Virus record (IMG/VR): IMGVR_UViG_3300033121_001335
Location: 1 to 64,000 of that record
DNA length: 64,000 nucleotides
Origin: a virus
Lineage: Duplodnaviria; Heunggongvirae; Uroviricota; Caudoviricetes
Strand: one strand, 5' to 3'
The first letter of the stretch is position 1. The number at the start of each line of letters is the position of its first letter. Under the pieces are notes generated by a model. It had not been told where the DNA came from and ran no database searches. It saw nothing but the letters and a program-made list of their open reading frames with translations. Positions 2,541 to 28,449 of the stretch are shown in pieces. The position numbers and the translations under genes were made by a program.

Positions 2541-2600
2541 ATCCAAAAAGAAACCCGAAAGGATTTGGAATAACATCCTTTCCTTTCGGGTTATTATTTT
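2541..2600 (-). terminator. hairpin terminator candidate for the minus-strand structural operon
   Basis: Inverted repeat cccgaaagg...cctttcggg followed, on the minus strand, by a T run (tttcttttt). It sits just after the 2616-3752 gene. Confidence 0.45.
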
Positions 2601-2615
2601 ATACTTTCTTCTTTT

Positions 2616-3752: not shown

Positions 3753-3772
3753 ATTACTTTATTATTTTTGTG

Positions 3773-5451: not shown

Positions 5452-5618
5452 AAGAATTATTTAGTTATTTATTGGTTTTAGAGAATAACTGCCATCGAAG
5501 GCCACGCCTAAAACGAATTATTCTTATTTAAATTTGGGGGCTAATGGCTAGGTAGGAACTTGCTTTTCGCCCCCGGTAGGTCTATTTAATATTCAGCAGT
5601 ACAATCCCGCTGACGCTA

Positions 5619-7178: not shown

Positions 7179-7203
7179 ATTATTTGTAAATTTTTATTAA
7201 ATT

Positions 7204-8451: not shown

Positions 8452-8556
8452 AAAAAATATTTAGTTTGATTGGTTTTTGTATTCTGGGTGTAAAATTATA
8501 TAGACAATTTCACAATTCCAAGAGAACAGCCCTCTATTTAATTGGTTGTTAAGCTA

Positions 8557-9105: not shown

Positions 9106-9108
9106 TGT

Positions 9109-11703
9109 TTATTTCTTTGGTTTAGCCCTAGCCTTTTGTTTAGAGGCCTTTATTTTTTCTCTGTCAATTTTCATTTTCTCCATATTCTGCTCGAATTCCA
9201 CCTTTTTATTCTTTTGCTCGGCCTGAAACTGCATCATGTCCAGATTGAGCTTTTTGTTCTCTAGGTCTCTTTTGGCTATAGATTCCTGAAGCTTAAGCTG
9301 GTGTCCTGCTATTTCCATTATATCAGGGGTGCCATCTCCATCGGCATCTGTTGATGGTGCTTGGAAATATGTTGATATTTCTGCCTTAGCTAAGTCTGTA
9401 TTAGCCTTAACATCTGTCTTATATTTCTCCATCCTCAAATTGTCCTGATGGTGCCTTTCGTTTTGTTCTAATTGAGCCTGAGCTATTTCTTGCTCTCCTT
9501 GTGTCTTAGCCTGCTCATTTTCCTGCATTTGAGCCTGCATTTGGTCTTGCTTATTCTTAAGGTCTTTAAACACCTTCTGCATCTCACGGATGGAATTGGT
9601 AGCATAAAGAGCCGACACCTCGTATATACTAGCTCCATTTTGAAGCATAGCTTGGCTAAGCTGACGGAATTCGTTAAAGAGTTGTTGGTCTTCTGCTTTA
9701 GATGTTACAAACACCTTGAGGTCTTTTAGTTTTATATCCTCCCCTGTCACCTGAACGAATGCCGACTCCCCCTGAGAGGTTATAAAATTAACAGTGGAAA
9801 CTGGTTTCCTGCTTTCTATGTATTGGGAGCAATCAAGCATTGCTTGATATAGCTGGTTAAGGACGTATGAGTGGGCTGCAAAATATGGTTCTGTTTGAGC
9901 AAACGATTGAACCAAAGCATTCTGGTTAGCAGTGGCTGTTTCAGTGGCCAGTGGTGAACCAAGCCTTTGCCTATTCATACCTATAAGCTCCCAACATTCT
10001 TGTTTAAGCTGTACGGCCAATCTATACCGTGATTCTATTTCTGATGTTCTCGTAAGGTCTATATTCTTAGCTACAGTGGTGTTCTGTATAGACCCCTTTG
10101 TATTTTCAGGGGAATCGTCATCAAATATAATACCTCTCTTCCTTGCCTCTTCTTCCCATACGTCTATGGCATCGTTAGCATCTCCATCCTTCGGCCTTGG
10201 TATACGCCTAATGTTTACATTGGCAACATTACCAATCTCTTTTTCTAGAATTTCGAACAGCTGATTCATACAGATGTTGTATAATGTTTGGTAGGGTTTC
10301 ATCATATCCACCAAACTTTTAGGCTCTGTATTTTTCACTTCATGAATGAGACCTATAATAGGGGCATAGTCTAGGAGTGTGTATGGTTTAATGAAATAGA
10401 TGTCAGGGCCAATTTTAACTCCCTGATACCATTGATTAACCCAGCCCCATTCTATAGAAAGTTCTCCGGGAGACCCCTCTTTATATGATTCGTCTACGAG
10501 TGTGGTTTGTTCATCTCCTGCCTCATCTATATATGTAAGCTGACCCACCTTCTTTTTGGAATTCCAATAAGCTCTTATAACAACATATTTATATCCAAAG
10601 GAAAAGGCATTATTAGAACCAAGCCAATGATTGAGGTCATCTCTAAACTCATTGCCCAGCTCACTTTGTAAAATCATCCTTTCCTGATATATCAGCCTGT
10701 TATATGTATCATATTGAATTGTATTAATACCTGTTTTGTCCGTAAATAAGTTGGACTCTCTTCCATCCATGAATATAGAGTTTTGCATGGATTTCTGAAG
10801 ATGTTTAATTTCTTCTTCTGTGAGCTCTGGAAACTCTTCTATAATTTCGGATATTTCCTTAACATACACCGTACCTATTGCATAGGGTACGTTTGGTTCC
10901 CCCGAAGCACCTGATGTATATTTATTATCTGGTGTTCCTTTATGCCATACGTTTTTAGGGTTTTCTGTTTTGACATTAAATCCTAATTTGGAATTATCTT
11001 CATATATATGGTAGAACTCTCTGGAGCATATGAGAAGGTCTCTGAAAGCATCTTCTGATTTTTCCTTTGTATTAAACTGGGCTTTAAGAGCTGTGAGGAT
11101 ATGATTGCCCCACCTTTCAGCCAGCGATGTATAGTCTGTTAACAAGTCTTTAACATCTTCCATTACTAGTTGCTGCATGTCCTCATCGGAAATTTGAGAA
11201 GCATCCTCACCCTTCATAGCCATCTTATTTATAATAGTCTGTCTGGCTTGCTGGAGAATGAGTTGCTGAACTATTTCTGTCTTATATTGCAGTTCTTCGT
11301 TTCTGCTGTCGTCATCAAAAGCTTTCACCTTATGTATATCAGGTCTTTTAGAAAGCTCTCCCACCATTGTATTAACAGGTGGGTTTATAATTGGATAGTG
11401 CTTTACATATGATGGCAGGTCTTCTTTTTGTGTAAGAGTTTCTAAGAAGTCTTTAACCTCAGGGTCTGCATCCTGATAAAAGTCACTGGGTTTCAGTATT
11501 CCTTTCATCAAATCATAGTTCTTAACGAATGTCTCCTTATTTGCTTTATATTGCGTATACGCCATATTAGCAAAATAGTCAAGAGTGTTCTTGATGTAAG
11601 ATTCATTGGTAAGTTTCTCCTCCTCGCTTTTAAACGGGTCGGGGTAATTATTTAGATAGGAATATCCTAAATTAACATCACTATCACTTCTGGTAATTAT
11701 CAT
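9109..11703 (-). CDS. putative portal protein
   Basis: 864-aa ORF immediately downstream of the large terminase, with overlapping stop and start (11700-11703). It has a Lys-rich coiled-coil C-terminus with a DADGDGTPD motif. Confidence 0.45.
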   Translation of the reverse strand: MIITRSDSDVNLGYSYLNNYPDPFKSEEEKLTNESYIKNTLDYFANMAYTQYKANKETFVKNYDLMKGILKPSDFYQDADPEVKDFLETLTQKEDLPSYVKHYPIINPPVNTMVGELSKRPDIHKVKAFDDDSRNEELQYKTEIVQQLILQQARQTIINKMAMKGEDASQISDEDMQQLVMEDVKDLLTDYTSLAERWGNHILTALKAQFNTKEKSEDAFRDLLICSREFYHIYEDNSKLGFNVKTENPKNVWHKGTPDNKYTSGASGEPNVPYAIGTVYVKEISEIIEEFPELTEEEIKHLQKSMQNSIFMDGRESNLFTDKTGINTIQYDTYNRLIYQERMILQSELGNEFRDDLNHWLGSNNAFSFGYKYVVIRAYWNSKKKVGQLTYIDEAGDEQTTLVDESYKEGSPGELSIEWGWVNQWYQGVKIGPDIYFIKPYTLLDYAPIIGLIHEVKNTEPKSLVDMMKPYQTLYNICMNQLFEILEKEIGNVANVNIRRIPRPKDGDANDAIDVWEEEARKRGIIFDDDSPENTKGSIQNTTVAKNIDLTRTSEIESRYRLAVQLKQECWELIGMNRQRLGSPLATETATANQNALVQSFAQTEPYFAAHSYVLNQLYQAMLDCSQYIESRKPVSTVNFITSQGESAFVQVTGEDIKLKDLKVFVTSKAEDQQLFNEFRQLSQAMLQNGASIYEVSALYATNSIREMQKVFKDLKNKQDQMQAQMQENEQAKTQGEQEIAQAQLEQNERHHQDNLRMEKYKTDVKANTDLAKAEISTYFQAPSTDADGDGTPDIMEIAGHQLKLQESIAKRDLENKKLNLDMMQFQAEQKNKKVEFEQNMEKMKIDREKIKASKQKARAKPKK

Positions 11704-13814
11704 CTGCTAAAGAGTTTTCTTTTCTTGCTTTTAAACATTTTTGATTCGAAGGTGAACAGTTTGTTCCCCTTTATTGGTTTCTTAAACAGAGACTGTATTC
11801 TTGGGTCAGCTTCTCCACCTATCTTACCTATAATTGGGTCTAGGTGATTGGATAGGGCTATTGCTAAGGAGAAGGCCACCTCTCTATCATAGTTGCCTTC
11901 TTCTTCATTAAAATTAATTATCTCCTCTAAAAGCATTGGGTCTGGTATGCGGGAAACCCCCAATGTTTCTTTTATTATAGAGCCTTGGTCGTCTCGTTCC
12001 TGCTTGATAACATCATCCAGATATTTCTTAGACCCGGCTCTTAGCATATCCCTGATTTTCTCAGAACTTCTATGTATACCCTTATCCCTTGTTACAGTGG
12101 TGTTTGGGACGTACAGCTTTAACCACTGAGGCTGGTCTTCTAAATAATGCCCATCGCCCTTACTAATCATATAATTAATGAAGGTCATGTCATCATTTTC
12201 ACAAAGTGTTCTGGCATTATACCATTTGATTAACATCCGGGCTTGCTCGTTCCATTTCTCAGGACTGTCAGGCCTTGACGCATAGGCCGCCACTATCATA
12301 TCCTGATATTTTTCAGAATGTATATCATGCATTCGCTTGAATATATACACAACGCCTAAAGAATCAGAATACTCTGCTTTTCCTTGCCTATAGTTATCCA
12401 CCCCCGCTACATATAGGCCAAATGGTGGGAGGTCATCAATGGGAAATTCCCACACCTGTATTGGAGCATCCTTATTTTGGGTCTTTACTGGAAACTCTGT
12501 AATAGGTAGTTTGTTTGAAGGCTTGTGGGTAATCCCCTCACCATTGTGGTATAATTCTACTAGTGAGCCCGTCACCCCATGAGCTCTTAATCTTTGTTGT
12601 TGAAACTTAGCCGCCTCAATATTATAGTCATTCTTTGTTAAAACTAAGAAGCTATCGGAGGCCTTTAAAGGCCAATAGGCTTTAAATTTCAGAACAGTTT
12701 TACTATTTCCTGATTTAAGGGCCTTCGCATATTCTGGTTTCCACCACTCTTCCAGAGCTCTCTCCTCATCACTAACAAGAATAGTTATATTATCAAAATC
12801 TGGATGTGGTTCTAATTTTCTCCCCAATTTTTCAGTGAGATAGCGATAGAGAGTCCAAGGCTGCTTATATTTCATTCTTGCTCTTAAGGCAGATATGAAT
12901 CTGCCCATCTTTCCGCCCGGAACCTCTGGATTATCAAAAGCTAAACTATTGTAAGAGAGTGGATTAAAGAACATTTCTCCTGCTTCTTTTCCCACTTCCA
13001 TATCCCCACCAGTTCCTGTTAGCATAACCAAGCACGATGGTTTATCCCCGCCGCCTGACCACCAACATCCATCTGAGTCTTTTACACATCCGATGAGGTT
13101 GGGTAATGTACCCTCTTCATCAATTACATGAAAACCGGGACGTGTACCATTGGCTGCCATTGTTTTATTACCATTCTCGTAATTCCTCACCTTTATAGAG
13201 GATTTAGAGGAAGCTGGGTCTGGCAGTCCTGTAGCCTTATCCTTCCACCCTGCTACGATTTCTTTTTTCCAATCTGAGGTGATGCGCTGTTTTCTAAACA
13301 TGGGATGTATGTTTAGAAGCCCATCCTCGATTTTATCTGTTACAAGCTTTATGTAGTTATAAGCCCCAGCAGATATTACAGCCTCACTTTGGTCATAGAA
13401 TGTGTATAAATGTCCAGCACATGAGCCGGCTATCACACTCTTACCAAAATCACGAGAGCCCACTAGGTTATATATCAATATACCCTCGTCTGTGCATTTT
13501 TCTAAATCGTCTACGAATATATCCCAATCTAAATCACGGAATAATGGAGTGATGATTTGACGAGATTTAACTGTCTTTCCTTTCACTTCCCTTTCTATAT
13601 ATGCTGCAATTTTCCAATATACAGTGTGAAAATATAGTCTTCCGGGAATTTTGAGCTGGCCATTTCCTATATAGAACCCATTCATACATCTGTCTTTCTC
13701 TCGTCTCCAATAATCACGAAAAACCTGCATAGCTTCCTCATCCTGAGGGTCGTATACGGGTTCACTCTGATTTGGAAACCAGATGTTAACGGTATTTAAT
13801 TGGTATTCTGGCAT
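11700..13814 (-). CDS. terL: terminase large subunit
   Basis: 704 aa. It carries an ATPase Walker A-like VGSRDFGKSV of the type found in large terminases. Its size and its position ahead of the portal support the call. Confidence 0.65.
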   Translation of the reverse strand: MPEYQLNTVNIWFPNQSEPVYDPQDEEAMQVFRDYWRREKDRCMNGFYIGNGQLKIPGRLYFHTVYWKIAAYIEREVKGKTVKSRQIITPLFRDLDWDIFVDDLEKCTDEGILIYNLVGSRDFGKSVIAGSCAGHLYTFYDQSEAVISAGAYNYIKLVTDKIEDGLLNIHPMFRKQRITSDWKKEIVAGWKDKATGLPDPASSKSSIKVRNYENGNKTMAANGTRPGFHVIDEEGTLPNLIGCVKDSDGCWWSGGGDKPSCLVMLTGTGGDMEVGKEAGEMFFNPLSYNSLAFDNPEVPGGKMGRFISALRARMKYKQPWTLYRYLTEKLGRKLEPHPDFDNITILVSDEERALEEWWKPEYAKALKSGNSKTVLKFKAYWPLKASDSFLVLTKNDYNIEAAKFQQQRLRAHGVTGSLVELYHNGEGITHKPSNKLPITEFPVKTQNKDAPIQVWEFPIDDLPPFGLYVAGVDNYRQGKAEYSDSLGVVYIFKRMHDIHSEKYQDMIVAAYASRPDSPEKWNEQARMLIKWYNARTLCENDDMTFINYMISKGDGHYLEDQPQWLKLYVPNTTVTRDKGIHRSSEKIRDMLRAGSKKYLDDVIKQERDDQGSIIKETLGVSRIPDPMLLEEIINFNEEEGNYDREVAFSLAIALSNHLDPIIGKIGGEADPRIQSLFKKPIKGNKLFTFESKMFKSKKRKLFSR

Positions 13815-14137
13815 TATATCATTCCAGACTCGGCTGGGGAAAGAGCTTGATGCCCTCTAACATTTTTCTGCTTTTCTTCTTCTTTTTGCCGCATTAAATC
13901 TATACGAGCTATTAAGTCAGCATAGTCCTTTAGAGCTTGGGTTAGTGATTTTAGTTGAGCCTCTATAGAAGCTGTCACCATAGGTATGGCTCCACCGCTT
14001 TTAGTTTCTTTCCAATGTATTCTGTCCTTTAGCTTATCAAATGGATTGGCTTCAACATATTGTTTTAGCTCCTCAGCCTTTTTCTCTAAAAACTCCAGCT
14101 CATACACTATGTAGTTATCTTTCTTTTTTGTTGCCAT
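13814..14137 (-). CDS. hypothetical protein (possible small terminase or accessory; no direct evidence)
   Basis: 107-aa ORF, charged, immediately upstream of terL with overlapping stop and start. Confidence 0.35.
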   Translation of the reverse strand: MATKKKDNYIVYELEFLEKKAEELKQYVEANPFDKLKDRIHWKETKSGGAIPMVTASIEAQLKSLTQALKDYADLIARIDLMRQKEEEKQKNVRGHQALSPAESGMI

Positions 14138-14138
14138 A

Positions 14139-14465
14139 TCATATATTAGTAAAAACTATATCCTCTAAATCTACATTTTGTCTAATTTCTAGGGCTTGTT
14201 CAGATAGTGTTGATTTATAAGCCTCATCATATGTAGTGTAAAGCAAGCTTCCATCAACACTCATATCCTCTGTTTTATCAAAAGACATGGATTTACCATT
14301 TTTGAATCTAATTATATAATTATTATAATAGAGTCTGTTTTGGCCTCCCCATTTAAGCGCACCATCAACACTACTAAAATCTTTCATCAACACTATAGCT
14401 TCCACTATATCCTTAGTGCCGGGGAGTATTGCAAACACCCTTTCATTTTTTACAAAATAATTCAT
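14139..14465 (-). CDS. hypothetical protein
   Basis: 108-aa ORF in the co-oriented array. Confidence 0.35.
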   Translation of the reverse strand: MNYFVKNERVFAILPGTKDIVEAIVLMKDFSSVDGALKWGGQNRLYYNNYIIRFKNGKSMSFDKTEDMSVDGSLLYTTYDEAYKSTLSEQALEIRQNVDLEDIVFTNI

Positions 14466-14474
14466 ATTTAATTA

Positions 14475-14762
14475 TTAATATTCCTCTTCTTCGTCCTCTG
14501 ATTTTTCATCAAAAAGATGTTTAGCATCCTCTTCAATCTTTTTTATATAATCATCTGGAACAAGTTGTTGTTCATCCAAGGCTAATTCTGCCTGATATTT
14601 TTCAATAGCAAAACAAAGTTCCTTATCTGAAATACCCCAAAAATCTCCGTAGTCTGAAAGGGCCATAGATAGGTGGCGCCCTATTCCAAATGTGGGGTAT
14701 TCTCTAGCCAACTGGTGCATCAGTTCTCCGAATTTCTTTTTGTAGTCTGGTGTTCTTCCCAT
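14475..14762 (-). CDS. hypothetical acidic protein
   Basis: 95-aa ORF with an acidic C-terminus, EDEEEEY. Confidence 0.35.
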   Translation of the reverse strand: MGRTPDYKKKFGELMHQLAREYPTFGIGRHLSMALSDYGDFWGISDKELCFAIEKYQAELALDEQQLVPDDYIKKIEEDAKHLFDEKSEDEEEEY

Positions 14763-14934
14763 GTTTAACCGTTTAAGAACTTAGAATTTTTTGCAATAAC
14801 AGCATCAATATCCGTCTGCATAAATCTCAATAATTTATTTATTATAGACTGAGCTTCCTCTTTTTGTGCGTCTGTAGTTGCTTCCAAAGCTAGCATATCT
14901 AGCATTAATTTAATAGTGTCCAATGTTATTGGGT

Positions 14935-15228
14935 TCATGATTCTTGGTTTAATTGTTTATTTATATTATCGTTTTCTTCTTTTGTAGCTATCGCCAACCA
15001 TTTCTTTTCCGGGCATTCGCAAGAAAGACAGGCACTCTTCTTCTTTAAGGGGCATCCGCAGCTCTTACAATAAGAGAACGATGTAACCCTTCCTTCTGAA
15101 CTATTAAAAGGACAATTAAGACACACTGCCAATCTTTGTGCTTGTGTTTCTCTTATCAGCTCCTTCATTTCCGTTGCTGGAAATATATCATTTTTCCAAC
15201 CCTCTAATATTTTTTTTAGACTGTCCAT
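14935..15228 (-). CDS. zinc-finger or zinc-ribbon protein
   Basis: CxxC pairs: CLNCP, CKSCGCP, CLSCECP. Confidence 0.45.
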   Translation of the reverse strand: MDSLKKILEGWKNDIFPATEMKELIRETQAQRLAVCLNCPFNSSEGRVTSFSYCKSCGCPLKKKSACLSCECPEKKWLAIATKEENDNINKQLNQES

Positions 15229-15544
15229 GTCCCTGCTTTGTGTTTAAATAGTTTATCTCTTCTTTAAGGCTCTGTATTTTCTTAGAGTTTCTCTCCCCCT
15301 CCGGAAGGCTTAGATGGTAGTCTAGAAGAGATTGTCTCCTCTCTAGTCTCCTGTTTAGCTTTCCTGCTGTCACTAAAAGCTTTCCAAACCCAGAAAGTTC
15401 CACAGAACTACATGTTTTTGTAGCTTCTTTAGCCTGTTCATAACTCCAAGAAATCACCCTATCACATATAGACTCTTCTATTTGCAAGTCCTCAGAAACA
15501 GAGGCCAGAATCCAGTCTTTCGTTGACATATTAGCTGGCTTCAT
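15188..15544 (-). CDS. hypothetical protein
   Basis: 118-aa ORF in the same array. Confidence 0.3.
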   Translation of the reverse strand: MKPANMSTKDWILASVSEDLQIEESICDRVISWSYEQAKEATKTCSSVELSGFGKLLVTAGKLNRRLERRQSLLDYHLSLPEGERNSKKIQSLKEEINYLNTKQGHGQSKKNIRGLEK

Positions 15545-15869
15545 TCTCTATTGATATGATTAAAGCAATGGGTTGTGTAAAATCCAGCTTATTTAAGGCT
15601 GGGTGTAGGCTTAATGTTGTTACGCCAGAGAGAATTCCCTTCTTCTTTAAGGGTCCAGATATATTCTCTAGCCTTTTATGGGTTGTGTTAAACTCTTTAA
15701 CATATTCGTCCCTGTCAGCGATGCCTCCACCTAAAGATATATTAGCTATCAGCTCTATTTGCTTTGGAGTGAGAAGCAGGTCGTTCAAAACAGACAATAA
15801 GCTGTAATAGACAATCGCCGTCTTTAGCCTGTCTTTATACACCTTCCTTATTTTCTGACTATTTTCCAA
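15531..15869 (-). CDS. hypothetical protein
   Basis: 112-aa ORF. Confidence 0.3.
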   Translation of the reverse strand: MENSQKIRKVYKDRLKTAIVYYSLLSVLNDLLLTPKQIELIANISLGGGIADRDEYVKEFNTTHKRLENISGPLKKKGILSGVTTLSLHPALNKLDFTQPIALIISIENEAS

Positions 15870-15956
15870 TATGTAGTTATTTTTACAAAGGTAGAATAGA
15901 ATTTCTTACTAAAAAAGTATCTGTCTAATTCATTTTCAGATGGAATGCTATTATAG

Positions 15957-16325
15957 CTAAGAATTATTTTGTTTTACGGTCAAATTTTCGATAAGCTCGT
16001 TGGCATAAGCCTCATATTTAGTCACATACTCATCTAGCTTCTGCTCAAACTTCCTTTTTTCCCATACACAAATGCAGCATCCCTCATGTTCTGTAGAAAC
16101 AAGGGTATATTTAAATCCCTCTTCTCTCACTCCATCCACTCCCTGAGTGCTATCGAAATAGTCACACCATGTAGTAATTTCATTATGTGGAATCTTTATC
16201 TTTCCAGCCGCCCAATCACCCTCCTGAGGAATGTCCTTCATTTTCTCTATTGTTTCAGCCTTTTCAGCTGTAAACCTATCGTATATCCTAATTGGGAATT
16301 CAAAAAATCTTTCTGTATATTTCAT
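15957..16325 (-). CDS. hypothetical protein
   Basis: 122-aa ORF. Confidence 0.35.
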   Translation of the reverse strand: MKYTERFFEFPIRIYDRFTAEKAETIEKMKDIPQEGDWAAGKIKIPHNEITTWCDYFDSTQGVDGVREEGFKYTLVSTEHEGCCICVWEKRKFEQKLDEYVTKYEAYANELIENLTVKQNNS

Positions 16326-16328
16326 AAT

Positions 16329-17006
16329 TTAGAATAATTTAAACTGTAATTTTTTATAATACCCTATTTTTAATCCGGGTTGCTTCAAAGGTAGGGAATA
16401 AGTTCCGGATAATGAAATAATATCCTCATTAGTTTTGTTTTTAAAAAGGAGTCCTAGGTCAATTTGCTGAATATTGGGCTTATTTAGAAGGCTTTCTACA
16501 CTCACCCCTATAAAAATCTGCCGCTTTAGGGGGGCATATTTTGTTATCGTAGTGGTGGTGTGTGGAAAATTAAGCTTATACGTTGGTTGTGTGCTTTTTA
16601 GTGTATTTTCTGCCACTATTTGGGTTAAATCCACTATTCCCACTTTCAGCCCAGAGGTGTCCTTAAGCTCAATAGAATCTTTATATGTCTTTACAGCTAG
16701 GTATTGTTTTACAAGCTCGTTATATTGCTCTGTAAGCTTCTGAATGTCTCCTGAAGCATTATATTGGGCTGGGATGTTTATTGGAAACACTGTGTTTCCC
16801 TGTTGCTGTGGTTGGTAGGGCGGCATTATGACAATTGGTTGAGGCACCTGAGTGGTGAAGGTTGTTGTATCAGATGTTCCGGGCTTTCCTTTTCCCTGTA
16901 GTATTTGTTTTCCCCCATTAAAGAAGAACACAAAGAACATAATTCCCACTAAAATAATGCCTAAATTTTTTTTTATTGCATCTGCAATTGTTATTTTTTC
17001 TGCCAT
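16329..17006 (-). CDS. membrane-anchored hypothetical protein
   Basis: 225 aa with an N-terminal transmembrane segment, ILVGIMFFVFFFNGG. Confidence 0.4.
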   Translation of the reverse strand: MAEKITIADAIKKNLGIILVGIMFFVFFFNGGKQILQGKGKPGTSDTTTFTTQVPQPIVIMPPYQPQQQGNTVFPINIPAQYNASGDIQKLTEQYNELVKQYLAVKTYKDSIELKDTSGLKVGIVDLTQIVAENTLKSTQPTYKLNFPHTTTTITKYAPLKRQIFIGVSVESLLNKPNIQQIDLGLLFKNKTNEDIISLSGTYSLPLKQPGLKIGYYKKLQFKLF

Positions 17007-17177
17007 TTTTCTAAAAATTTTTTAATGTGAGATTCCCATTCTGGGAAATTATTATATTTACCCCTATTGATTTCATAAATAATCACTTTAGCCAAAAGTT
17101 CCTGTTCTTCTTTCGGGGTGTTTATATGTACAAGCAAGCCACAAGAAGCAGGCCCAAAAAATATGAAATGTGTATCT

Positions 17178-17600
17178 TTAACCAATGTTTAATAATTTGC
17201 AAATATATCTAAATGTGTTTATATCCTTACATTCCCCCATAAAGAGTTGCTGACCATCTTTTACCCCATGCCATATTCTTATTGCTTGTTTTTCTTTATT
17301 TTTTCCTATCTCTTTATATATTTTTATAACATAGTCTTCTTTCCAGAACTCTATAGGATTATCCCAAGATGGGTCTGTTTCCCATCCCTCAGCTTCTATT
17401 TGTTCTTTAGTTAGATAGGGAACTCTTATAACTCCTTCCTCTATGTCATGCTTTAATTCAAACCTCCAACCTTCCATATCATAGAAAACAGGACTATCTG
17501 AATCAAAATTGTATTTTACCCAATTATCACCATCAAATCTCTCATATTCATACCCAACCCTAATGTCGGAAATATCTGGTACGAAATATTTATTTTCCAT
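17178..17600 (-). CDS. hypothetical protein
   Basis: 140-aa ORF. Confidence 0.35.
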   Translation of the reverse strand: MENKYFVPDISDIRVGYEYERFDGDNWVKYNFDSDSPVFYDMEGWRFELKHDIEEGVIRVPYLTKEQIEAEGWETDPSWDNPIEFWKEDYVIKIYKEIGKNKEKQAIRIWHGVKDGQQLFMGECKDINTFRYICKLLNIG

Positions 17601-17853
17601 TATTTAATGTTTTAAATCCTTGTTTTTGAAAAGTCTTATAAAATAATTCTAATCCAGCATCCCCACAATTTATAGTACCCGCTGTGCCACAATCAATTTT
17701 ATGGCTCCTATATTTCTTTCCATCCTGTTCCCACTCATGCGTTTGGACGTTGGGGAATCTAATACTGACTGTTTCCAACTCTTTTACATAATTTATTTTC
17801 TTATTTTTGCTCATCATTTGGTAGTTTATATTCCCATTTAAACTCTTTACCAT
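17590..17853 (-). CDS. hypothetical protein
   Basis: 87-aa ORF. Confidence 0.3.
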   Translation of the reverse strand: MVKSLNGNINYQMMSKNKKINYVKELETVSIRFPNVQTHEWEQDGKKYRSHKIDCGTAGTINCGDAGLELFYKTFQKQGFKTLNNGK

Positions 17854-18016
17854 CTAGTTTTATATTGGAATTTGGTATAGAAAGCTGCTCTAGTATTTTT
17901 ACATCTGGCATTAAACACTTAGCCACCATATCGGCTAATTTCTGTGCTACACCCCTGTTAAGCAGGATTTCTTTGTCTTTTTCCATTAAACGCATTTTAA
18001 GCCCTATTACAGGCAT
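17801..18016 (-). CDS. hypothetical protein
   Basis: 71-aa ORF. Confidence 0.3.
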   Translation of the reverse strand: MPVIGLKMRLMEKDKEILLNRGVAQKLADMVAKCLMPDVKILEQLSIPNSNIKLDGKEFKWEYKLPNDEQK

Positions 18017-18022
18017 TTCTAT

Positions 18023-18328
18023 TTAAAAATGAGGAATAGTGTTGTCTAAATTATTGGGCAAATCCGGGGCTTTAAACGATGTCTCATTAAATATAAGCAT
18101 TTCCTTGAACATCCTATCCTGTTCTTTCTCTATTTGAGGCTTATTTTTCTCTAATTCCTCCTTAGCCCATTGCTCTACTCTTGGGGGATTGTGTGTCTTC
18201 ACCCCTATTTGGGCCTGAGCCATTTTGAGCACACCCTCTAATTCATCCAGAACAGAGCTTTCAGCTGTTATTACATATGTCCTTGTTTCTAGGCTCATAA
18301 TTAAATTGTTGCTGCTTTTACAGCCCAT
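18023..18328 (-). CDS. hypothetical protein
   Basis: 101-aa ORF. Confidence 0.3.
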   Translation of the reverse strand: MGCKSSNNLIMSLETRTYVITAESSVLDELEGVLKMAQAQIGVKTHNPPRVEQWAKEELEKNKPQIEKEQDRMFKEMLIFNETSFKAPDLPNNLDNTIPHF

Positions 18329-18555
18329 GATGTCCCAGATTCAATTTCTGTCATAGCTAGAGCTTTAAGCCTTTTCCATTCCCCCAATGTCTCATCGTCC
18401 CAAGAAGGCCTATTAGTAGCCTCATTAATCAGGTCAATAAGTTCAGCCCCCTTAGTTTTAAGCTGAAATATGTAGTCCTCGTTTGAGGGATTGAATTCTA
18501 TTCTTGTTCTTTTTTCTCCTAATGTTTTTGCCATAATTCTGATTTTAGAACACAA
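18301..18555 (-). CDS. hypothetical protein (first gene of the minus-strand block)
   Basis: 84-aa ORF next to the divergent promoter region. Confidence 0.35.
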   Translation of the reverse strand: MCSKIRIMAKTLGEKRTRIEFNPSNEDYIFQLKTKGAELIDLINEATNRPSWDDETLGEWKRLKALAMTEIESGTSWAVKAATI

Positions 18556-18589
18556 ATGTAAGCCAAATGTTTTATTTCACCAAATTTTT

Positions 18590-18700
18590 TAAAAAATTTT
18601 TTTTTCGAAAAATGTGGGACGGGGGTGTCCACATCCCACTCACCACCCCCGCTTGAAAATACGGTAGGGGGTATTCCCCGCATTAAACATTTAAAAACGA
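18590..18700. promoter_or_regulatory. divergent intergenic control region with two GC-rich hairpins
   Basis: A GC-rich island in AT-rich DNA. It contains cgggggtg(16 nt)cacccccg and gggggtattcccc. Genes diverge from here: minus strand to the left, plus strand to the right. Confidence 0.4.
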
Positions 18701-18706
18701 TAAAAA

Positions 18707-19144
18707 ATGACAACTACAACAATTAACACTGCTACTGCTAAAACGACTCTTGCTGAGCATGTTAAAGAAGCAAGTGTAGGGATGAACCAAAGCGTAGTGA
18801 TTGACGCTAAAACCTTCGTAAAAGACCTCGCAGCCCTTGAGGTGAAGGAAGAGTTTGATTACTACACGAGAGAGAACAGGGGGCATTTCAGGTTTTTTAC
18901 AGAGGACGGTAAAAAGCTTTGTGTTAGCATTTCAGAGGCTGGATTGGCTTCTGCACCTGCTAAAATCAAGCTTAGCGAAGAGCCATCCGAAATCCTGATG
19001 TGGAGTTTGAAAAACCTTACATTACGGAGTGGTGTTAGCAACACTACAGGCAATGACTACCTTTCATTTGGTGTTACTGGTGAAGGCACACTTGTCACTG
19101 GTAAAATCAACCTTAAGGCTTTCATTAAGGCTTATGCTGGTTAA
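18707..19144 (+). CDS. hypothetical protein
   Basis: 145-aa ORF followed by a canonical terminator. Confidence 0.45.
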   Translation: MTTTTINTATAKTTLAEHVKEASVGMNQSVVIDAKTFVKDLAALEVKEEFDYYTRENRGHFRFFTEDGKKLCVSISEAGLASAPAKIKLSEEPSEILMWSLKNLTLRSGVSNTTGNDYLSFGVTGEGTLVTGKINLKAFIKAYAG

Positions 19145-19146
19145 TT

Positions 19147-19172
19147 AAAGGGGCTTCGGCCCTTTTATTTAT
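19147..19172 (+). terminator. rho-independent terminator
   Basis: aaaggggc-ttcg-gccccttt followed by tattt. Confidence 0.7.
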
Positions 19173-19419
19173 ATAAATAAGGGGAATATTATGAATGGAA
19201 TGGTTGTAATAGCCTAGTATTACAATATTCTCCTTATTCTATATATAGGGTGGGTAATAAGTGTATACGAAGGGTGGGAAATACCAAAAACGAGGACATT
19301 ATTTATTAATCAATTGATTATCAGAATGTTATGTGTCATACATTAACATTGCTGTGGGCATTCGATTGCCAATACATCACTAACTAAAACAAGCTGGGAA
19401 GCTTTATATCCATTAATTT

Positions 19420-19692
19420 ATGGCAAAGAGTCCTGTATTTGTATCATTAGACCTGTCCACAACAACTAATTCTGGTGATAAAGCTGTTGTTGACAAAAGA
19501 TTATTAACCTCTTTCTTTAAAAAGTTTGAGCCATCCAATTTGGAAGAGCTTAAAACCAGTTTAAAAACACTGATTGATAACAGCCAAACTATGGAGGAAA
19601 TGGCGGAAGTGGTGGATGAACACCTGTACATCACCCAAATAGCCACCAAATATCATGGAATCACTCAGTCTGAAGCTTTAGCTGGTGTCTAA
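19420..19692 (+). CDS. hypothetical small protein
   Basis: 90-aa ORF inside the ORF-poor hub. Uncertain. Confidence 0.25.
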   Translation: MAKSPVFVSLDLSTTTNSGDKAVVDKRLLTSFFKKFEPSNLEELKTSLKTLIDNSQTMEEMAEVVDEHLYITQIATKYHGITQSEALAGV

Positions 19693-19977
19693 TTCACATT
19701 AAATATGTTTTGGTTATGTCCAATACACGCTGCAATAGGTGGTGAGGACATAATTAAATGCATTGTTGTGACAATTGTGGCTATAAAATAGACAAATTTT
19801 GTCTTCAGCCTTGCTGGTGGCTTAATACAGAGGAATTATATGTACAATATATAGGGGATTTGGGCATCAGATGTGCTATTATTGCTGGCAGCATTGGTGT
19901 TCATTTCCCTATATATTAGTATGTAGTGTTTTCCCTATGGCAAAAAGTGACTAAATGGGCTATTTTTATCATAACTC

Positions 19978-19990
19978 ATTGATTATCAAT
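19978..19990. repeat. palindromic operator-like site (attgatTatcaat)
   Basis: A member of the repeated TTGATWATCAA palindrome family. Confidence 0.4.
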
Positions 19991-20087
19991 AAACATTTAA
20001 CGATGATTATTGGTAAATAACGATATTTTTATGATAAAATGGGTGATTTGGGGGGTGTGGACACATCCTTGGAACTTTGGTTTATAA

Positions 20088-20109
20088 CGTAAACTATTGA
20101 TAATCAATA
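20088..20109. repeat. gtaaacTATTGATAATCAATA, a 15-bp perfect palindrome with a conserved 5' flank
   Basis: Exact palindrome tattgat-a-atcaata. A second copy is at 20827-20848. Confidence 0.5.
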
Positions 20110-20826
20110 TTTGGGGCAAGCTATAATGGCATTAAAACTTAATAACTATGAGCAAAATAGTTAGGTCTTATATGGTATTAATACGCCATTTTATTGCTCT
20201 TCTGAGCCATTAAGCATAAGGTGAACAACAATGCACATTTGGGGAATGTATAAATCCAGCCAAGCTATAATAGATGCAAGTATCCTTAACATTAAATCGG
20301 AGGAGAAAACTGGACGACTATTATAGAGAATACGTCTTGGGACAAACGGTAACCATTATAAGTCCTTTTTACTTATAACACAATCTGCAAACCAAATAAG
20401 CACATAATCCAGTTGTTTGCTTATTTTAAGGGGTTGTGTTCAGGATATTGAACTAAAAGCACCAAATGGAAGGATTGCCTACACTTGTTCTGCTTTTGTT
20501 AATAAAAAGTAATTACGAAACATTCCAGTTTTGGGTGTATTAGACGAAGGTGAGATTATATTCACTATTACTTTTAAAATACACTGCATTGTATTTATTT
20601 TCATTTACCACTTATTATTATGATGCAAACTATTGTTTTTTAATTGTTCAAAAAGAACAAAAATAAGTTCTGGGTCATCACTATGTCATGACATATGTGA
20701 GAAAACCTCAATAACTGGGTTTTGTATGCCATTTGAAAAAATAAATGGTAGACTTTCCCTAATATTGTAAGAGGTGATAATGGTCGTATTGGTACAGGCA
20801 TGTAAGAATATACGACACACTATTAT

Positions 20827-20848
20827 GTAAACTATTGATTATCAATAA
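20827..20848. repeat. gtaaacTATTGATTATCAATA, a second copy of the 15-bp palindrome
   Basis: Identical to the 20088 copy except for the central base. Confidence 0.5.
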
Positions 20849-21779
20849 GTACATTTAGTGTCTGGTTCCCAGTAAGGATTTTAATAAGCTGTAAATCAAT
20901 TAGTTATTTCTATAACTTTGAGATAATTCAGTAATAAGTCCTCTTCCAGAGAGTGGAAAAGAAATCAAGACTCTCCTAAGGTTGTGAGTAGGCTGGTGTT
21001 ACCTGCAACTCTCCTTAAAGAATACAGAATTATGCAGAGTTCTGTATTCTTTATTGTTACCAAAGACAAACTGGTTGTTTAATATGGTTCGATTCCATAC
21101 TTTTGGTCTAAATTGTATTATTATGAGAAATTATACATTTCATTGGCAGTATAAATATCAAATAACTGTTTATAATGCCAATAATGATTCTAAAAGGACA
21201 CATTCATCTGATAATATTAAGGATATTATTGATATATATCTTGATAAGAAAAGTGAAGGTGTATATTTTAGATTTTTGAAAAATAAATAAAATCACCATG
21301 TGGAAGAAAATATATTTTATAGACTATGATAAAGTCAAAAAATATATTTGGGTTTATACATACAAACAATTTAAACACCTCTGGATTAGCCTTTTACGAA
21401 CTAAAGGTGAGATGTTTATAAAAATCTCCAGTCCTGAGTGTGGACACCAATTATTATGGAAAGACTCTATCCAATAGAAGACACTAAATATTCAGCTGAT
21501 TTCTCTTCTATGAGTCCGTTTATATATAAAGACTTTCCCTTTGGAAGATTAGTTTTTAAATGTAAAGAGGCGGGGGCTGTAATCATAGTTACTGATAACA
21601 ATTCTGTTATGGCTGCAAGATTTTCCAGAGATAATATGAGGCATGGAGTAAAATATGCATTTAGACCAAAATTTACTAATTAATATAATTCTCTTCCTTA
21701 ATAATAAGCACAGCTTTATTGTATATAGTATTTGTATATTTTAAAGTTTTATTAGGGAAGAGAATTATAATTGTTGCAA

Positions 21780-22900
21780 TAAAGAGTGAGAGAAGGGAAA
21801 CATATGAGAGCTTGACTCATCCTTTCGAAGAGCATCACTCTTTAAAATTGCACTAAAAGCTACGAAAAACCTGTAAGGTTTCTAGAGAAATAAGATGAAA
21901 ACAAATTCACCTTATTGGTTATAAGTGGCTAATTGATTATTAATAAAAAATTTCTTAATAGTGGAAGTATGAATAAGTGCTAACATAGATTAGCAGCTTG
22001 CACTATTAATAGAATGGTAACAACTATTTCTTCTGCACAACTCATGTAGATATACTTCTTAGGACTTGAGATACAAAAGACAGCCTTGCTTGATAGAAAG
22101 GTGTAGGGAATATGTATCGTTGGATAGACTATCATCGAATCCCTAACTAAGATGTGAAACTACCTGATTAATAGGGTCTATGGATGTGTTCATAGTTTAC
22201 GAAGTGCGAACCATTAATCAGCTCCCAAGGGTGAGACAGTTGTAATAGGACAAGTCGTAGTACCTGTAAGTGTGTTAAACCTACCACTATTACAACTGAG
22301 TGCAGAAGAAACCTCTTTAAGAACTCTCTGGCTCTTGTGCATACATAAAAGTTACCGCTTTAGCGTTGATAGCCTAACAGCTATTTACAGATGGCTGGTG
22401 TATGTGGAGAGAGTAGAATAGCTGATACCGAACTACCTATCTGGTGAAGGTTTGAAAGCTTTGACTTCTACTGGCTGTAACCCAAGAGAGTTCTTATTTT
22501 AAAAATATTAAAGCTTAAAGCTGTCTTCGGCACTCAGAAGACCCACAGCAATAAGCTTTAACTTCTTTATGACAAAATAGGGTAGTGGTAAGATAAAAGT
22601 AAAGATATTGAACCAAGGAGTATTCCAACTGTCAATTATGACCATGTTTGTGCACTAAGCAGAAAGCCAGTATACATGACGAGAGCTTCCTTAGGGGCAT
22701 CTTTTAAACTTACTGCTGCTCTATTTTTAACAGCAATATTTATTACATATAAAATAAAATAGCTCATTGTGATATGTTGGATTGAGCAATCTGACATAAG
22801 ATATAAGGATAACCTAAGAGAAGGGGGACACAGCAGGCTTATTGCTTGGTACTTATATCACCCGAAAGGGTTATTTATTAACATTTAAATTTATAAACAT
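21780..22900. ncRNA. candidate large structured non-coding RNA or other non-coding element. Strand and boundaries unknown.
   Basis: About 1.1 kb with no ORF of 60 aa or more on any strand. Base composition is visibly more GC-balanced than the flanks. Several local stem-loops are present, for example cagttgtaatag...ctattacaactg and gtcttcggcactcagaagac. Confidence 0.2.
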
Positions 22901-23027
22901 GAAAAAGCAAACTTTTACGCCTGATAAGGCAGTTATTGAACATATATCAAAATTAATCAAATCTGGGAGATGATTTTGATGTATTAACAAAATTATCAAA
23001 AAGTCTTAAAAATAAAAGCATTAAGCT

Positions 23028-23750
23028 ATGTTTAAAAGAGCAAAAGTGGTTATGTTACCCACTAATCAAAAAGCACCTGAAGGTACATTATATCTTCAAC
23101 ACAACCAGCTTAGAATATCCCAAGGAGGTATTACTAATGCAATTAATCAAAACAAAAATAATAAAAGTGTAAATCATCAACATCTTTATATTTTATCAGA
23201 TGAAGAAATAAAAGCTGGATATTTAGCAATGAATATGTACAATAATACAAATACCATATTCAAGATAACTAAAGTTTTAGCAGATGGTTACGAAGGTCAA
23301 AAACTTAATGAGCCCAATATATTTTATGGTTTATCTAAAACTCTTAAAAAAATTATTGCTACAACTGATAGTTCTTTAAAAGTTTTTATTGATAAAGCAT
23401 ATATGAATTTTGGAGAAACAGAGTGTTTACCTCAACCATCTCAATCATTCATTGAAAAATATGTTGAGAAGTATAATAAAGGTGAACAGATTACTGATAT
23501 ATTAGTTGAATACGAATTTGATGTAAGTAGAAAACCATTTGCTATTGGTAGTAATCCTGAACATTATAATCTTAAAGTAAATCTTAAAGACAACACTATT
23601 ACAATTAAGCCTGTAAAAGAGAATTGGAACAGAAGTGAAGTGCTTCATTTTCTTGGCGAAGCTTTCAGATTGGGCAAACAGGTTCAAAGGAGTCCTGATT
23701 ATTATTCTTTATGTGACCCATTAGCTGATTTAGCTAAAAAATTATTATAA
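23028..23750 (+). CDS. hypothetical protein
   Basis: 240-aa ORF, the first long plus-strand ORF after the hub. Confidence 0.4.
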   Translation: MFKRAKVVMLPTNQKAPEGTLYLQHNQLRISQGGITNAINQNKNNKSVNHQHLYILSDEEIKAGYLAMNMYNNTNTIFKITKVLADGYEGQKLNEPNIFYGLSKTLKKIIATTDSSLKVFIDKAYMNFGETECLPQPSQSFIEKYVEKYNKGEQITDILVEYEFDVSRKPFAIGSNPEHYNLKVNLKDNTITIKPVKENWNRSEVLHFLGEAFRLGKQVQRSPDYYSLCDPLADLAKKLL

Positions 23751-26215: not shown

Positions 26216-27046
26216 ATGAATATTTCTGAACACACGGGTAATTTCATTCAGGAAATGAAACGTAGAAATTATAGCCAAAACACTATTGATAACTATTCTT
26301 CCTGCATTAAATATTTTTTCGCCCAATCAGCCAAAGACCATCCAAAAAATATTAACGAACAGGATATAAAAGATTTTTTAGGCAAGTTCACAGAGGTAAA
26401 TACTCAACGCAACTACCATAGTGCAATAAAGAAATTCTACGATGTTTGTTTAGGACAAAAGGAAAAGTTCAAATATATTCCTTACGCACAAAAGAATAGC
26501 AAACTGCCAATAGTTTTATCTGTTGAAGAAATACAAAAAATGTTCTCTGTTTGCGAAAACACTAAGCACAAAGTTATACTTGCCTTACTATACTCATGCG
26601 GATTGAGGGTATCGGAATTAATAAATTTGAAGTGGGCTGATATTGACCGAAGCAGAATGATTATAAATATCATTCAGGCAAAGGGCAAAAAAGATAGACA
26701 GGTTATGCTTACGCCTCAATTAATCCCGTTACTGGAAAAGTATTACAAAGAATATAAAAGTAAAACGTATGTGCTGAATGGATGGAAGAACGAATTGCAA
26801 TATTCAGATAGAAGTGTAGGCGAAGTGGTTAAGCAATTAGCAACTAAAGCAGGTATCAGCAAAAGAGTTTATACTCATTTACTTCGTCATTGCAGCTTTA
26901 CTCACATGGTAGAAAATGGAACGGACATAAATTTAATACAGAAATTAGCAGGACATAGTAATGTTAAAACGACATCTATCTATACCCATATTTCACATAA
27001 CTTGATTTCAAAGATACACTCCCCTTTAGCAAATATTAATCTTTAA
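26216..27046 (+). CDS. int: tyrosine-type site-specific recombinase or integrase
   Basis: The C-terminal catalytic region HLLRHCSFTHMVENGTDINLIQKLAGHSNVKTTSIYTH carries the R..H-x-x-R..Y signature of phage integrase and Xer recombinases. The N-terminal SAM-like domain is also typical. Confidence 0.8.
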   Translation: MNISEHTGNFIQEMKRRNYSQNTIDNYSSCIKYFFAQSAKDHPKNINEQDIKDFLGKFTEVNTQRNYHSAIKKFYDVCLGQKEKFKYIPYAQKNSKLPIVLSVEEIQKMFSVCENTKHKVILALLYSCGLRVSELINLKWADIDRSRMIINIIQAKGKKDRQVMLTPQLIPLLEKYYKEYKSKTYVLNGWKNELQYSDRSVGEVVKQLATKAGISKRVYTHLLRHCSFTHMVENGTDINLIQKLAGHSNVKTTSIYTHISHNLISKIHSPLANINL

Positions 27047-27713: not shown

Positions 27714-27932
27714 AACTTGAGTTATGACAATATTAACATTTCCCGTAGAAATGCAAGAAGATGTGTATAAAGTAACAGGGCAGCCAGCTCCGGATGAAGT
27801 TATTGATGTCACAGTAAAATTTAAAGAAACACTTTCCGATGAAGTGTTAGGATTATTAAAAGCTTTAGGTGTTCAAATCAGATTTATGACACCTGTAAAA
27901 TAAATGAATGGTTGTTTGACACTTATTTGACT

Positions 27933-27972
27933 ATATGTAAGACACGGGTTCGACTCCCGTCTGCTCCACCGG
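27933..27972 (+). mobile_element. attP-like core: a tRNA 3'-end fragment (T-arm plus acceptor 3' strand) with no matching 5' half
   Basis: acggg-TTCGACT-cccgt followed by ctgctcc-a-cc, which is a canonical T-stem, T-loop and acceptor 3' strand. No complementary ggagcag acceptor 5' strand or D-arm lies upstream. About 900 bp downstream of int in a 280-bp ORF-free stretch. Confidence 0.5.
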
Positions 27973-28127
27973 ATTAATATTGACCATTTATAGGCCGGGT
28001 AATTCCGGTGGGGCAGCTTGGCTTTGATTGCATATCAGTGGATAGGAATAGACTATTCAGTGTAATAAACGGCAAGAGAATTGCTATTGGTAGAACTGCA
28101 ATGAGAATTGCGGCCTAACAACGTATT

Positions 28128-28166
28128 GCCCCCCTGTATTTATACAGCGAAAAGGGGGCTTTTTTA
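28128..28166 (+). terminator. rho-independent terminator candidate
   Basis: gccccc(c)...gggggc stem with an internal palindrome ctgtatttatacag, followed by tttttt. Confidence 0.5.
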
Positions 28167-28185
28167 ATTATTTAAACTAAATTTT

Positions 28186-28449
28186 ATGAGTGATAATAAA
28201 TACATTGTAGAATGTTCTGATGAAGAAGAATGGGAAGCTGTTAAGGCTAAGGGAAATGTTGATTTGGGGAGCTATGAGGTGTATCAATATAGCTATCCAG
28301 AAGAACCTATAGCTATTGATGTTAATAATGGAGAATGAAGTAGGCTGAGTTATTACACTAACAAAAGGGGAGGAGAATATAGCGACTATAAGTTTATAAC
28401 AGCTCAAGAATATTTAAACCCTGTTTCTGAGCCTCTTCTATTTAATTAA
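28186..28449 (+). pseudogene. PLIFN-family member interrupted by an in-frame TGA (28336-28338). Either a pseudogene or a stop-codon readthrough/recoding candidate.
   Basis: The ATG at 28186 opens a frame that stops at TGA after 50 codons. The same frame then continues for 36 codons to ...SEPLLFN-stop, the family's C-terminal signature. Confidence 0.4.

Follow-up and report, generated by a model that had tools for sequence, protein, structure and literature searches.

A twister-like RNA family with a member in the ORF-poor region of a phage genome

The DNA analysed here (hereafter the window) is a stretch of 64,000 nucleotides (nt), positions 1 to 64,000 of the IMG/VR record IMGVR_UViG_3300033121_001335. 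It belongs to an AT-rich phage genome (about 33% GC) of the Caudoviricetes. Structural genes occupy the minus strand from 416 to 18555, and genes run on the plus strand from 18707 onward. Close to the start of these plus-strand genes, in the region 19145-23027, open reading frames (ORFs) of at least 60 amino acids (aa) cover only 19.6% of the sequence, compared with a median of 94% over all stretches of 3883 nt, and this coverage is the minimum of the whole 64 kb. An earlier reading of the sequence (the original prediction) had seen almost no credible ORFs there, and had proposed a replication origin, a lysis-lysogeny control region or non-coding RNA genes. As to the ORFs, the low coverage was right, but the wording was slightly overstated, as several small ORFs are conserved or called as genes in relatives. 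We found that the region also holds a structured RNA, encoded on the plus strand at 22025-22496, which belongs to a phage RNA family of twister-like architecture.

The left edge of the region is marked, as had been noticed, by the intrinsic terminator of a 145-aa gene (18707-19144); it lies on the plus strand at 19146-19167, with a 9-bp stem, a GGGGCTTCGGCCCC core and a T-run. The region had been placed between divergent transcription units, but the actual divergent intergenic gap, 18556-18706, is outside it. Base composition is uneven: the GC content drops to 0.22 at 21100-21400, and the GC-richer segment already seen in the original prediction is found at 22100-22500, with 0.40-0.43 against about 0.30 in the flanks on both sides. 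Long ORFs were not restored in the region by readthrough of TGA, TAG or TAA, each stop being tested singly, and no tRNA gene was found within 19145-23027. A blastn search of the region against annotated phage records gave zero matches, and among 50,697 such records only one distant relative was found for the phage as a whole.

Known families gave no access to the RNA. A permissive Rfam scan of 19000-23200, a check proposed along with the original prediction, returned chance matches only, because the RNA family is absent from Rfam. At gathering thresholds, an Rfam scan of the whole window detected a permuted transfer-messenger RNA (tmRNA) elsewhere and nothing in the region. Scans of IMG/VR seeded with the proteins of the two flanking genes found nothing, nor did exact-motif scans made from the window-specific RNA core. 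Contigs were then taken from the hundreds of homologues of the 240-aa protein encoded by the gene at 23028. In L005/L006 (L numbers designate the contigs and loci used for comparison), the DNA of this gene is 90.5% identical to the window copy. The gap ahead of it, free of ORFs, matches patchily: 22215-22415 is 99.5% identical, further short matching blocks are found at 22014-22061, 22148-22171 and 22469-22496, and the sequence between them is unrelated. RNAalifold showed that the unrelated blocks are enclosed by helices that the conserved blocks form. On the plus strand, the whole RNA segment folds better than its shuffles (z = -5.1); local folding z-scores failed to single out the RNA, and only the fold of the entire segment did so. 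The suggestion that the region may carry non-coding RNA genes was thus borne out by a covariation-supported structure, which coincides with the GC-richer segment.

With nhmmer, diverged copies were then detected ahead of further homologues of the 240-aa gene (L042, L028, L032, L025), and these define a shorter, minimal form. Two independent motif scans of IMG/VR placed the family in at least 119 and at least 120 viral contigs, and more than 170 viral contigs carry the RNA-core family. A covariance model of the minimal form (R1) yielded 95 matches at E ≤ 0.001 in 100 loci. In the window it has exactly one match, at 22195-22317 on the plus strand (29.2 bits, E = 6e-5), which is in line with the usual scores of the extended subtype described below.

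Read from 5′ to 3′, the minimal form starts with an AU-rich flank, U-AA, the P2 strand UGCAC and a linker CAYWW. A 5-bp P4 follows, capped by the loop UUCCCAAGG, and then P5, CAGUUGUAAU...AUUACAACUG, with an interior of 15-400 nt, followed by an A. The P2 return strand GUGCA, then GAGGG, and last the return strand of P1 complete the element. Of the 131 sites listed, by far the most have ...AGTGCAGAGGG as the tail after P5. Covariation of the core was measured on 36 diverse members (alignment A4). P2 is 100% paired, P4 99.4% and P5 95.6%, percentages that are inflated by the partial pairing required when A4 was extracted, which leaves the compensatory changes unaffected. These changes are found in 3 of the 5 pairs of P2 (UGCAC, UGUAC, UGCAU, UGCGU and UGUGU, each with its complement), in all 5 pairs of P4, where at least seven different stems occur, and in 9 of the 10 pairs of P5. 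The diversity of P4 stems is also present in a set made without selection on P4. None of 500 shuffles reached the observed pairing values, and slid controls pair at 31-50%. Among the unpaired positions of the 36 members, the two sides of the internal loop L1 stand out: UAA is at least 90% conserved in canonical members and GAGGG is invariant or nearly so. The CCC of the P4 loop is complementary to the GGG of GAGGG in 36/36 members (at one position, 35 have C-G and 1 has U-G). Members without the loop CCC carry a local 5′ CCC or CCU that pairs with GAGGG (L220, L242, L244), as would be expected if the GGG cannot do without a partner.

In the extended subtype (about 28 distinct sequences, chosen by sequence motifs only), the P4 loop carries on its 5′ side an insertion that forms a helix, Pz, and two hairpins, Px and Py. 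Here P4 becomes a long-range helix, 98.4% paired; Pz is 100% paired (GUAG/CUAC versus GUGG/CCAC) and Py 94.5%, and all pairs covary. As a separate observation, in L158 and L194 the GAGGG(G) strand has a possible alternative partner in a downstream terminator stem, as in GAGGGGAGUAAUCCCCUUUUUU, which hints at mutually exclusive folds.

The window copy is of the extended subtype, and keeps every helix of it as well as the P4 loop. Its twister-like core extends over 22025-22311 on the plus strand, and is supported by the R1 match, the family covariation and the patchy conservation with L005. Within it we find a fused P1/P2 helix (22028-22038 with 22300-22310), P4 (22041-22045 with 22231-22235), Pz (22046-22049 with 22160-22163), the Px hairpin (22054-22155), the Py hairpin (22164-22221), the L4 loop CUCCCAAGG (22222-22230) and the P5 hairpin (22237-22298). 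The core is followed by a lineage-specific 3′ RNA domain of 180 nt (22318-22496), detected with RNAalifold and closed by a 14-bp helix, 22318-22331/22481-22496. In L005, the variable hairpin of this domain has another tip, with compensating changes such as GC to AU at pair 462:514. The departure from the family concerns L1: in place of N-AA opposite GAGGG, UUCUUCUGCAC pairs with GUGCAGAAGAA in a perfect 11-bp helix, and no loop is left. The loop CCC is kept and its GGG partner is lost. This closed loop and the 3′ domain are limited to the window, L004 and L005/L006. With a perfect helix in place of the cleavage loop, the window copy is expected not to cleave at the canonical site, and it is most likely a non-cleaving, ribozyme-derived structured RNA. 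That the core is nearly identical in L005/L006 despite the 10% divergence of the neighbouring gene argues for constraint. The RNA may be its own transcription unit, as suggested by a palindrome about 90 nt upstream, a hairpin at 22500-22569, a terminator-like site at 22685-22698 and a separate conserved block at 22754-22890, all of which are described below.

The family resembles most the type-P1 twister ribozyme (Rfam RF03160; Roth et al. 2014), whose Rfam consensus reads ccuuUAAcgCcGCC...cCGGUCCCAAGCCCGgUAAA...gGcgGAGGGaagg. The order of the parts is the same: P1, U-AA, a P2 with GC in it, P4 loop, P5 or an A-rich segment, P2 return strand, GAGGG and P1 return strand. Twister cleaves at U|A, and its loop L4 pairs with L1 and L2 to form contacts T1 and T2; its P3 and P5 may be absent, and it can do without P1 (PMC6154101). 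In the family, the P4 loop holds UCCCAAG, with its CCC complementary to GGG as in T1. P2 has 4-5 bp, and UGCA is present both in the family and in a sub-threshold twister of L157; an optional P3 (L096) and the P5 stem also match the published description (PMC6154101). A further likeness is that family members lie in phage DNA near other ribozymes, as twisters do, the clustering of ribozyme classes near phage genes being documented (PMC10085705). Three contigs carry such ribozymes on the same strand as a family member: a Hatchet in L219 (6387-6553, 79.3 bits for a gathering threshold of 51), a Pistol in L125 (1398-1457, 33.9 bits for 34.5) and the twister-P1 of L157 (855-923, 48.5 bits for 67.2). 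This neighbourhood supports a ribozyme identity.

There are also real differences from twister. P5 is present in essentially all family members, compared with about 1% of twisters (PMC6154101). L2 is CAYWW and not GCC, and the end of the loop is GG and not GCC, so that T2 would comprise one pair at best. P2 and P4 have 5 bp each, many members carry the three-helix insertion described above, and the window copy has neither UAA nor GAGGG. Because P5 is obligatory, T2 is limited to at most one pair and the Rfam models are silent, we call the family twister-like in architecture, and do not regard it as a demonstrated member of the twister class.

Other known RNAs fit less well. Twister-sister (RF02681) shares with the family a multi-stem junction after P2 and a twister-related P4 loop that contacts the internal loop L1. 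Its L1 is GCAAG opposite GCUCAU, its SL4 loop is GUGCAAGUC and cleavage takes place at C-A on the 3′ strand (PMC5660989), whereas the family has UAA opposite GAGGG and the loop UUCCCAAGG. With these different L1 and SL4 loop nucleotides, and no match to the covariance model, this class was rejected. The Theta ribozymes of gut phages (PMC10879173), which are related to that of hepatitis delta virus (HDV), are likewise small, numerous in phage genomes and found at transcript-processing positions, and both they and the family, for which cleavage is predicted, would cut at their own 5′ edge. Theta ribozymes, however, have an HDV-like fold and are tied to tRNA 3′ ends, and only few family members precede tRNAs. 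GOLLD and ROOL (Rfam) are, like the window RNA, structured phage RNAs of several hundred nt in ORF-free segments, in some cases close to tRNA or tmRNA genes. Neither was matched in sequence or by its Rfam model, and the core found here is clearly derived from a small twister-like motif. Hammerhead ribozymes, attC sites, group I introns, retrons and ToxI-type repeats, judged on the sequence, were discarded, as the order of motifs or the required partner genes do not fit.

As to genomic context, 132 of 148 family elements have the orientation of the local coding strand, and 16 the opposite one. An ORF starting with ATG begins 20-60 nt downstream of the element in 39% of cases, compared with 20% of controls. 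The 51 nt upstream of the elements are more structured than controls (-9.7 versus -6.0 kcal/mol, p ~1e-16) and more often T-rich (34% versus 10%). Among 51 loci chosen only for the 240-aa gene, 6 have an element on the same strand as the gene, upstream of it in 5 of the 6; the closest is found 39 nt from the gene, in L060.

From these positions we propose that canonical members, located between a terminator-like hairpin and the next start codon, would cut the transcript at U|AA. The targets would be read-through or polycistronic transcripts. After cleavage, the upstream RNA would end in a hairpin, and the downstream mRNA would begin with a 5′-OH and a compact fold; this would amount to a natural way of processing and insulating gene cassettes. 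Self-cleavage of the family is predicted here from sequence and structure comparisons.

A general association with tRNAs was considered and dismissed, as ARAGORN called a tRNA downstream of 1 element out of 155. A few individual cases may be mentioned. In L032, a tRNA-like sequence that ARAGORN did not call directly follows the element (4345-4415), with the acceptor GGTTTAC/GTAAACC and the T arm GGGTTCGAGTCCC. A tRNA or tRNA-like sequence is also found directly after the element in L115, L199 and L208, with an ARAGORN call for L208 only. Another conserved and uncurated motif consists of UACUCUCAUCCAAGCAGG, a variable hairpin and UCAAGGGUUGCAACCUUGUGAGAGUAC, its ends being complementary. It occurs in L117 (~880-1010), L140, L256 and at 33 other sites in viral loci, and is absent from the window; in L140 and L256 it directly adjoins the twister-like element, and it has no match in Rfam.

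We now turn to the rest of the region, which contains four or five small ORFs and one gene remnant of 27 aa, all on the plus strand. A real small gene of 90 aa, of no known family, lies at 19420-19692; it is identical in L001 and L002, and 67% identical over 81 aa in the distant relative L192. It is followed by a Cys-rich ORF of 53 aa (19758-19919), situated in an indel that the alignment with L001 skips. The remnant, at 20429-20509, has 27 codons, and tblastn aligned it at 67% identity with residues 105-131 of an intact open frame of 185 codons in L192. Downstream, two small ORFs are called as genes in L003: 21054-21290, with 78 aa (55 aa from the ATG at 21125), and 21298-21477, with 59 aa. 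The last one, at 21438-21683, has 81 aa (75 aa from the ATG at 21456), and a single diverged homologue, with 69% identity, in 5.8 billion proteins. The small ORFs of the region had zero matches to Pfam or PHROG families. Conserved genes masked by frameshifts or by the 60-aa cut-off had been named as what would speak against a non-coding region, and such genes exist in part: the remnant derives from an L192 gene of 160+ aa, and several ORFs lie near or below the cut-off.

Relatives show how variable this part of the genome is. Compared with the near-identical contig L001, indels are present at 19758-19919, 19992-20160 and 21291-21363, and homology stops at 21945; the two sequences are too similar for the comparison to say anything about the coding nature of the small ORFs. 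In L007, a syntenic and distant relative, the equivalent gap holds four genes. At its right end the region contains a conserved non-coding block of about 135 nt (22754-22890, plus strand), which precedes an ATG at 22900. It matches 4411-4277 of L192, likewise ahead of a gene start (nhmmer E = 1.4e-14), and includes a GAAA-capped hairpin (CACCCGAAAGGGU). In the window, the ORF that follows has 24 codons only. This block is possibly a promoter or leader of the rightward genes.

The palindromes of the original prediction were confirmed: TTGATWATCAA occurs 5 times within 19314-21943, in a clustered manner, as part of a 13-bp palindrome, ATTGATWATCAAT, with five copies in the region. With at most one mismatch, TTGATWATCAA has 14 matches in the whole window for 5.3 expected. 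The direct repeats were also real, the palindrome being embedded in a direct-repeat motif of about 27 nt. Copy 1 (ATTGATTATCAG, 19296-19326) is about 100 nt upstream of the 90-aa gene, an arrangement kept in L192. Copies 2 and 3, in 27-nt repeats found by repeat search, share 19965-20109 with a conserved non-coding block that nhmmer aligned, at ~19926-20073, with 5505-5358 of L192. Copy 4, also in a 27-nt repeat, is at 20821-20847, with a degenerate copy at 20619-20644, and copy 5 (21929-21952) is the one that lies about 90 nt upstream of the RNA. In all, five or six copies of the motif are each found ahead of a gene, a remnant or the RNA. The breakpoints of homology with L001, 19991 and 21945, come directly after copies 2 and 5. 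L001 itself has 6 copies in 4.4 kb, and the palindrome is lineage-specific: the 2.16 Mb of fetched loci contain 36 exact copies where about 6 would be expected, and these cluster in L001, L192 and L255. The palindromes are most likely operator- or promoter-associated sites. The arrangement recalls the promoter-early stem-loop (PeSL) cassettes of T4-type phages, which reportedly flank small early genes in a hyperplastic region and exchange modules at the motifs: here too, a repeated short motif stands before each small gene and modules are exchanged at the motif. The motif of the window differs: it is a palindrome of 13 bp in which neither promoter hexamers nor a -7 box can be recognised, and its promoter role is putative.

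Two side observations concern the same sequences. The stretch from the first hairpin to palindrome 1 contains, at 19240-19283, two copies of the direct repeat TATAnnnAGGGTGGGnAATA, 24 nt apart. The arms of an inverted repeat, 18625-18648 (GTGTCCACA...CCC) and 20041-20064 (GGG...TGTGGACAC), lie respectively in the divergent promoter gap and in the conserved non-coding block that follows palindrome 2; the 20041-20064 arm is also kept in L192.

Strong hairpins, which had been noticed as well, are found at four places. The long hairpin at 19168-19250 (z = -4.4 for 19100-19249) has a tip, UUGUAAUAG/UAUUACAA, that resembles helix P5 of the RNA family, and in L192 the corresponding place is taken by a complete family element. 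The other three are located at 21016-21053; at 21684-21769, directly after the 21438-21683 ORF, with 21-nt arms that are 95% complementary (z = -5.3); and on the plus strand at 22500-22569, after the RNA, with 25-nt arms that are 80% complementary, a candidate 3′ end or terminator. The terminator scan also reported the terminator-like site at 22685-22698.

Taken together, the data are best explained if the region is the plastic, cassette-like head of the rightward plus-strand transcription block of a Bacteroidota phage, with the twister-like RNA as one of its components; we give this joint explanation a probability of about 0.6. The region looks empty because its real genes are very small (about 55-90 aa), because some cassettes have decayed to remnants, and because its GC-richer part encodes RNA and not protein. 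A replication origin and/or a lambda-like switch, as originally proposed, with the palindromes acting as initiator or repressor sites, would account for the clustering of the palindromes, for the AT-rich stretch at 21100-21400 (GC 0.22), for the integrase gene 3 kb downstream and for the turn of the cumulative GC skew near 18.6-19 kb. This turn, however, coincides exactly with the switch of coding strand at 18556-18706, and the AT-rich stretch with two small ORFs. DnaA-box-like sites (TTATNCACA, at most one mismatch) are at background density in the region, with no exact box, and neither iterons or tandem arrays nor, in the flanking ORFs searched against Pfam and PHROG, an initiator domain were found. 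The palindromes are spread over 2.6 kb, each before a cassette, and the equivalent gap of L007 contains its four genes. As for the switch, Pfam and PHROG searches of 20 flanking ORFs (16.3-26.1 kb) detected no helix-turn-helix, repressor or Cro-like domain, and all ORFs of the region are on the plus strand, contrary to what a lambda-like switch would have. Judging from sequence, we consider both functions very unlikely for this region, although some part of it might still act as an origin. Another view is that the region is mostly decaying coding sequence, and that the RNA is a conserved relic with no present function. The 27-codon remnant, the three indels relative to L001, the ORFs of relatives in equivalent positions and the loss of the UAA/GAGGG loop in the window RNA are all compatible with decay. 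Yet neutral drift would be most unlikely to yield 99.5% identity in the core next to a gene at 90.5%, the helices of the extended subtype are all intact, variable hairpins have been swapped with their closing helices kept, and no reading frame is restored under any code, so that a relic appears quite unlikely to us.

For the RNA family, our boldest proposal is that of an abundant new branch of twister-type ribozymes in Bacteroidota phages, with an obligatory P5, a reduced T2 and, in one subtype, an insertion that might be a sensor, the window copy re-using the scaffold as a non-cleaving RNA of about 470 nt. We put it forward tentatively, at clearly less than even odds, and several results weigh against a twister identity or against a functional RNA in the window. 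The Rfam twister and twister-sister models had no match at E ≤ 10 to compact members, whether in a search space of 141-171 nt or with 85-nt members alone, and the twister-P1, -P3 and -P5 models had none in the window copy, the gathering threshold not being reached. P1 is weak (58% paired), in addition to the inflated percentages of the other helices in A4. The CCC and GGG partners of T1 are invariant and so show zero covariation, and for T2, with CA(Y)WW in L2 and GG at the end of the loop, one C-G pair at most can form (A4 columns 16 and 34), which does not covary. The closed-loop lineage consists of three distinct sequences, whose high identity could reflect recent exchange, and no promoter was recognisable for the 22025-22496 RNA; a sigma-70 promoter scan showed no enrichment.

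The silence of Rfam ribozyme models would also suit a family of non-catalytic cis-regulatory leaders, riboswitch-like or put-like antiterminators, in which the likeness to twister is convergent. Such leaders would be expected 20-60 nt before start codons on the coding strand and flanked by terminator-like hairpins, as the elements are; the few members in which GAGGG can pair into a downstream terminator stem, the persistence of closed-loop variants and the aptamer-like conserved junction nucleotides of the three-helix insertion go in the same direction. Against this, the elements precede unrelated genes, with several per contig, which is unusual for a metabolite sensor; their conserved unpaired nucleotides are the catalytic and tertiary ones of twister, in the same order; and other self-cleaving ribozymes are present in the same contigs. 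We hold leaders of this kind to be unlikely. Finally, the element could act as DNA, that is, as a recombination or cassette-boundary site folded as single strand, like integron attC. Inverted repeats with a variable centre, variable genes between copies and modules shuffled between phage variants are what such sites would produce. They would not produce the 132 to 16 bias towards the coding strand, nor G-U pairs, which would be A-C on the other strand, nor conserved asymmetric single-stranded motifs. The GTT...AAC boxes stand in the reverse order to that of attC, and no integron-type integrase is linked to the element. We give a DNA site hardly any credence.

To our knowledge, the twister ribozymes of bacteria and phages have no established biological role. 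Family members number in the hundreds and occupy defined positions on the coding strand, behind a hairpin and 20-60 nt ahead of a start codon, which would make such a role directly testable. Members with an inserted domain, a closed loop or no P4 loop are natural experiments on which parts of twister serve what. If the new twister branch is real, phages would cut polycistronic transcripts into cassette-sized mRNAs, and compact self-cleaving insulators of this type could serve genetic engineering in Bacteroides. The window also illustrates that seemingly empty GC-richer segments of AT-rich phage genomes can be RNA genes missed by Rfam-based pipelines.

The host is probably a member of the Bacteroidota, as TAnnTTTG -7 boxes precede many plus-strand genes, and as loci from metagenome-assembled genomes with the neighbouring gene family are labelled Bacteroides and Flavobacteriales. 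These boxes are located 13-52 nt upstream of many plus-strand starts (37254, 39281, 47922, 52842, 57646, 62296 and others). Within 19145-23027, TAnnTTTG is found at 20913, 21098 and 21343 only, the second of these inside the 21054-21290 ORF.

Elsewhere in the phage, the permuted, two-piece tmRNA is found at 27879-28209 (Rfam tmRNA_permuted, 53.7 bits for a gathering threshold of 47; ARAGORN tag GKRIAIGRTAMRIAA), 0.9 kb after a tyrosine integrase gene (26216-27046). L007 has a tRNA-Met and a permuted tmRNA, and L142 a standard tmRNA. On the minus strand, at 18301-18555, adjoining the divergent promoter gap, a gene encodes an 84-aa protein that matches the Acb2/Tad1 hairpin domain of Pfam (E = 6.7e-9) and could act as a sponge for cyclic-nucleotide immune signals.

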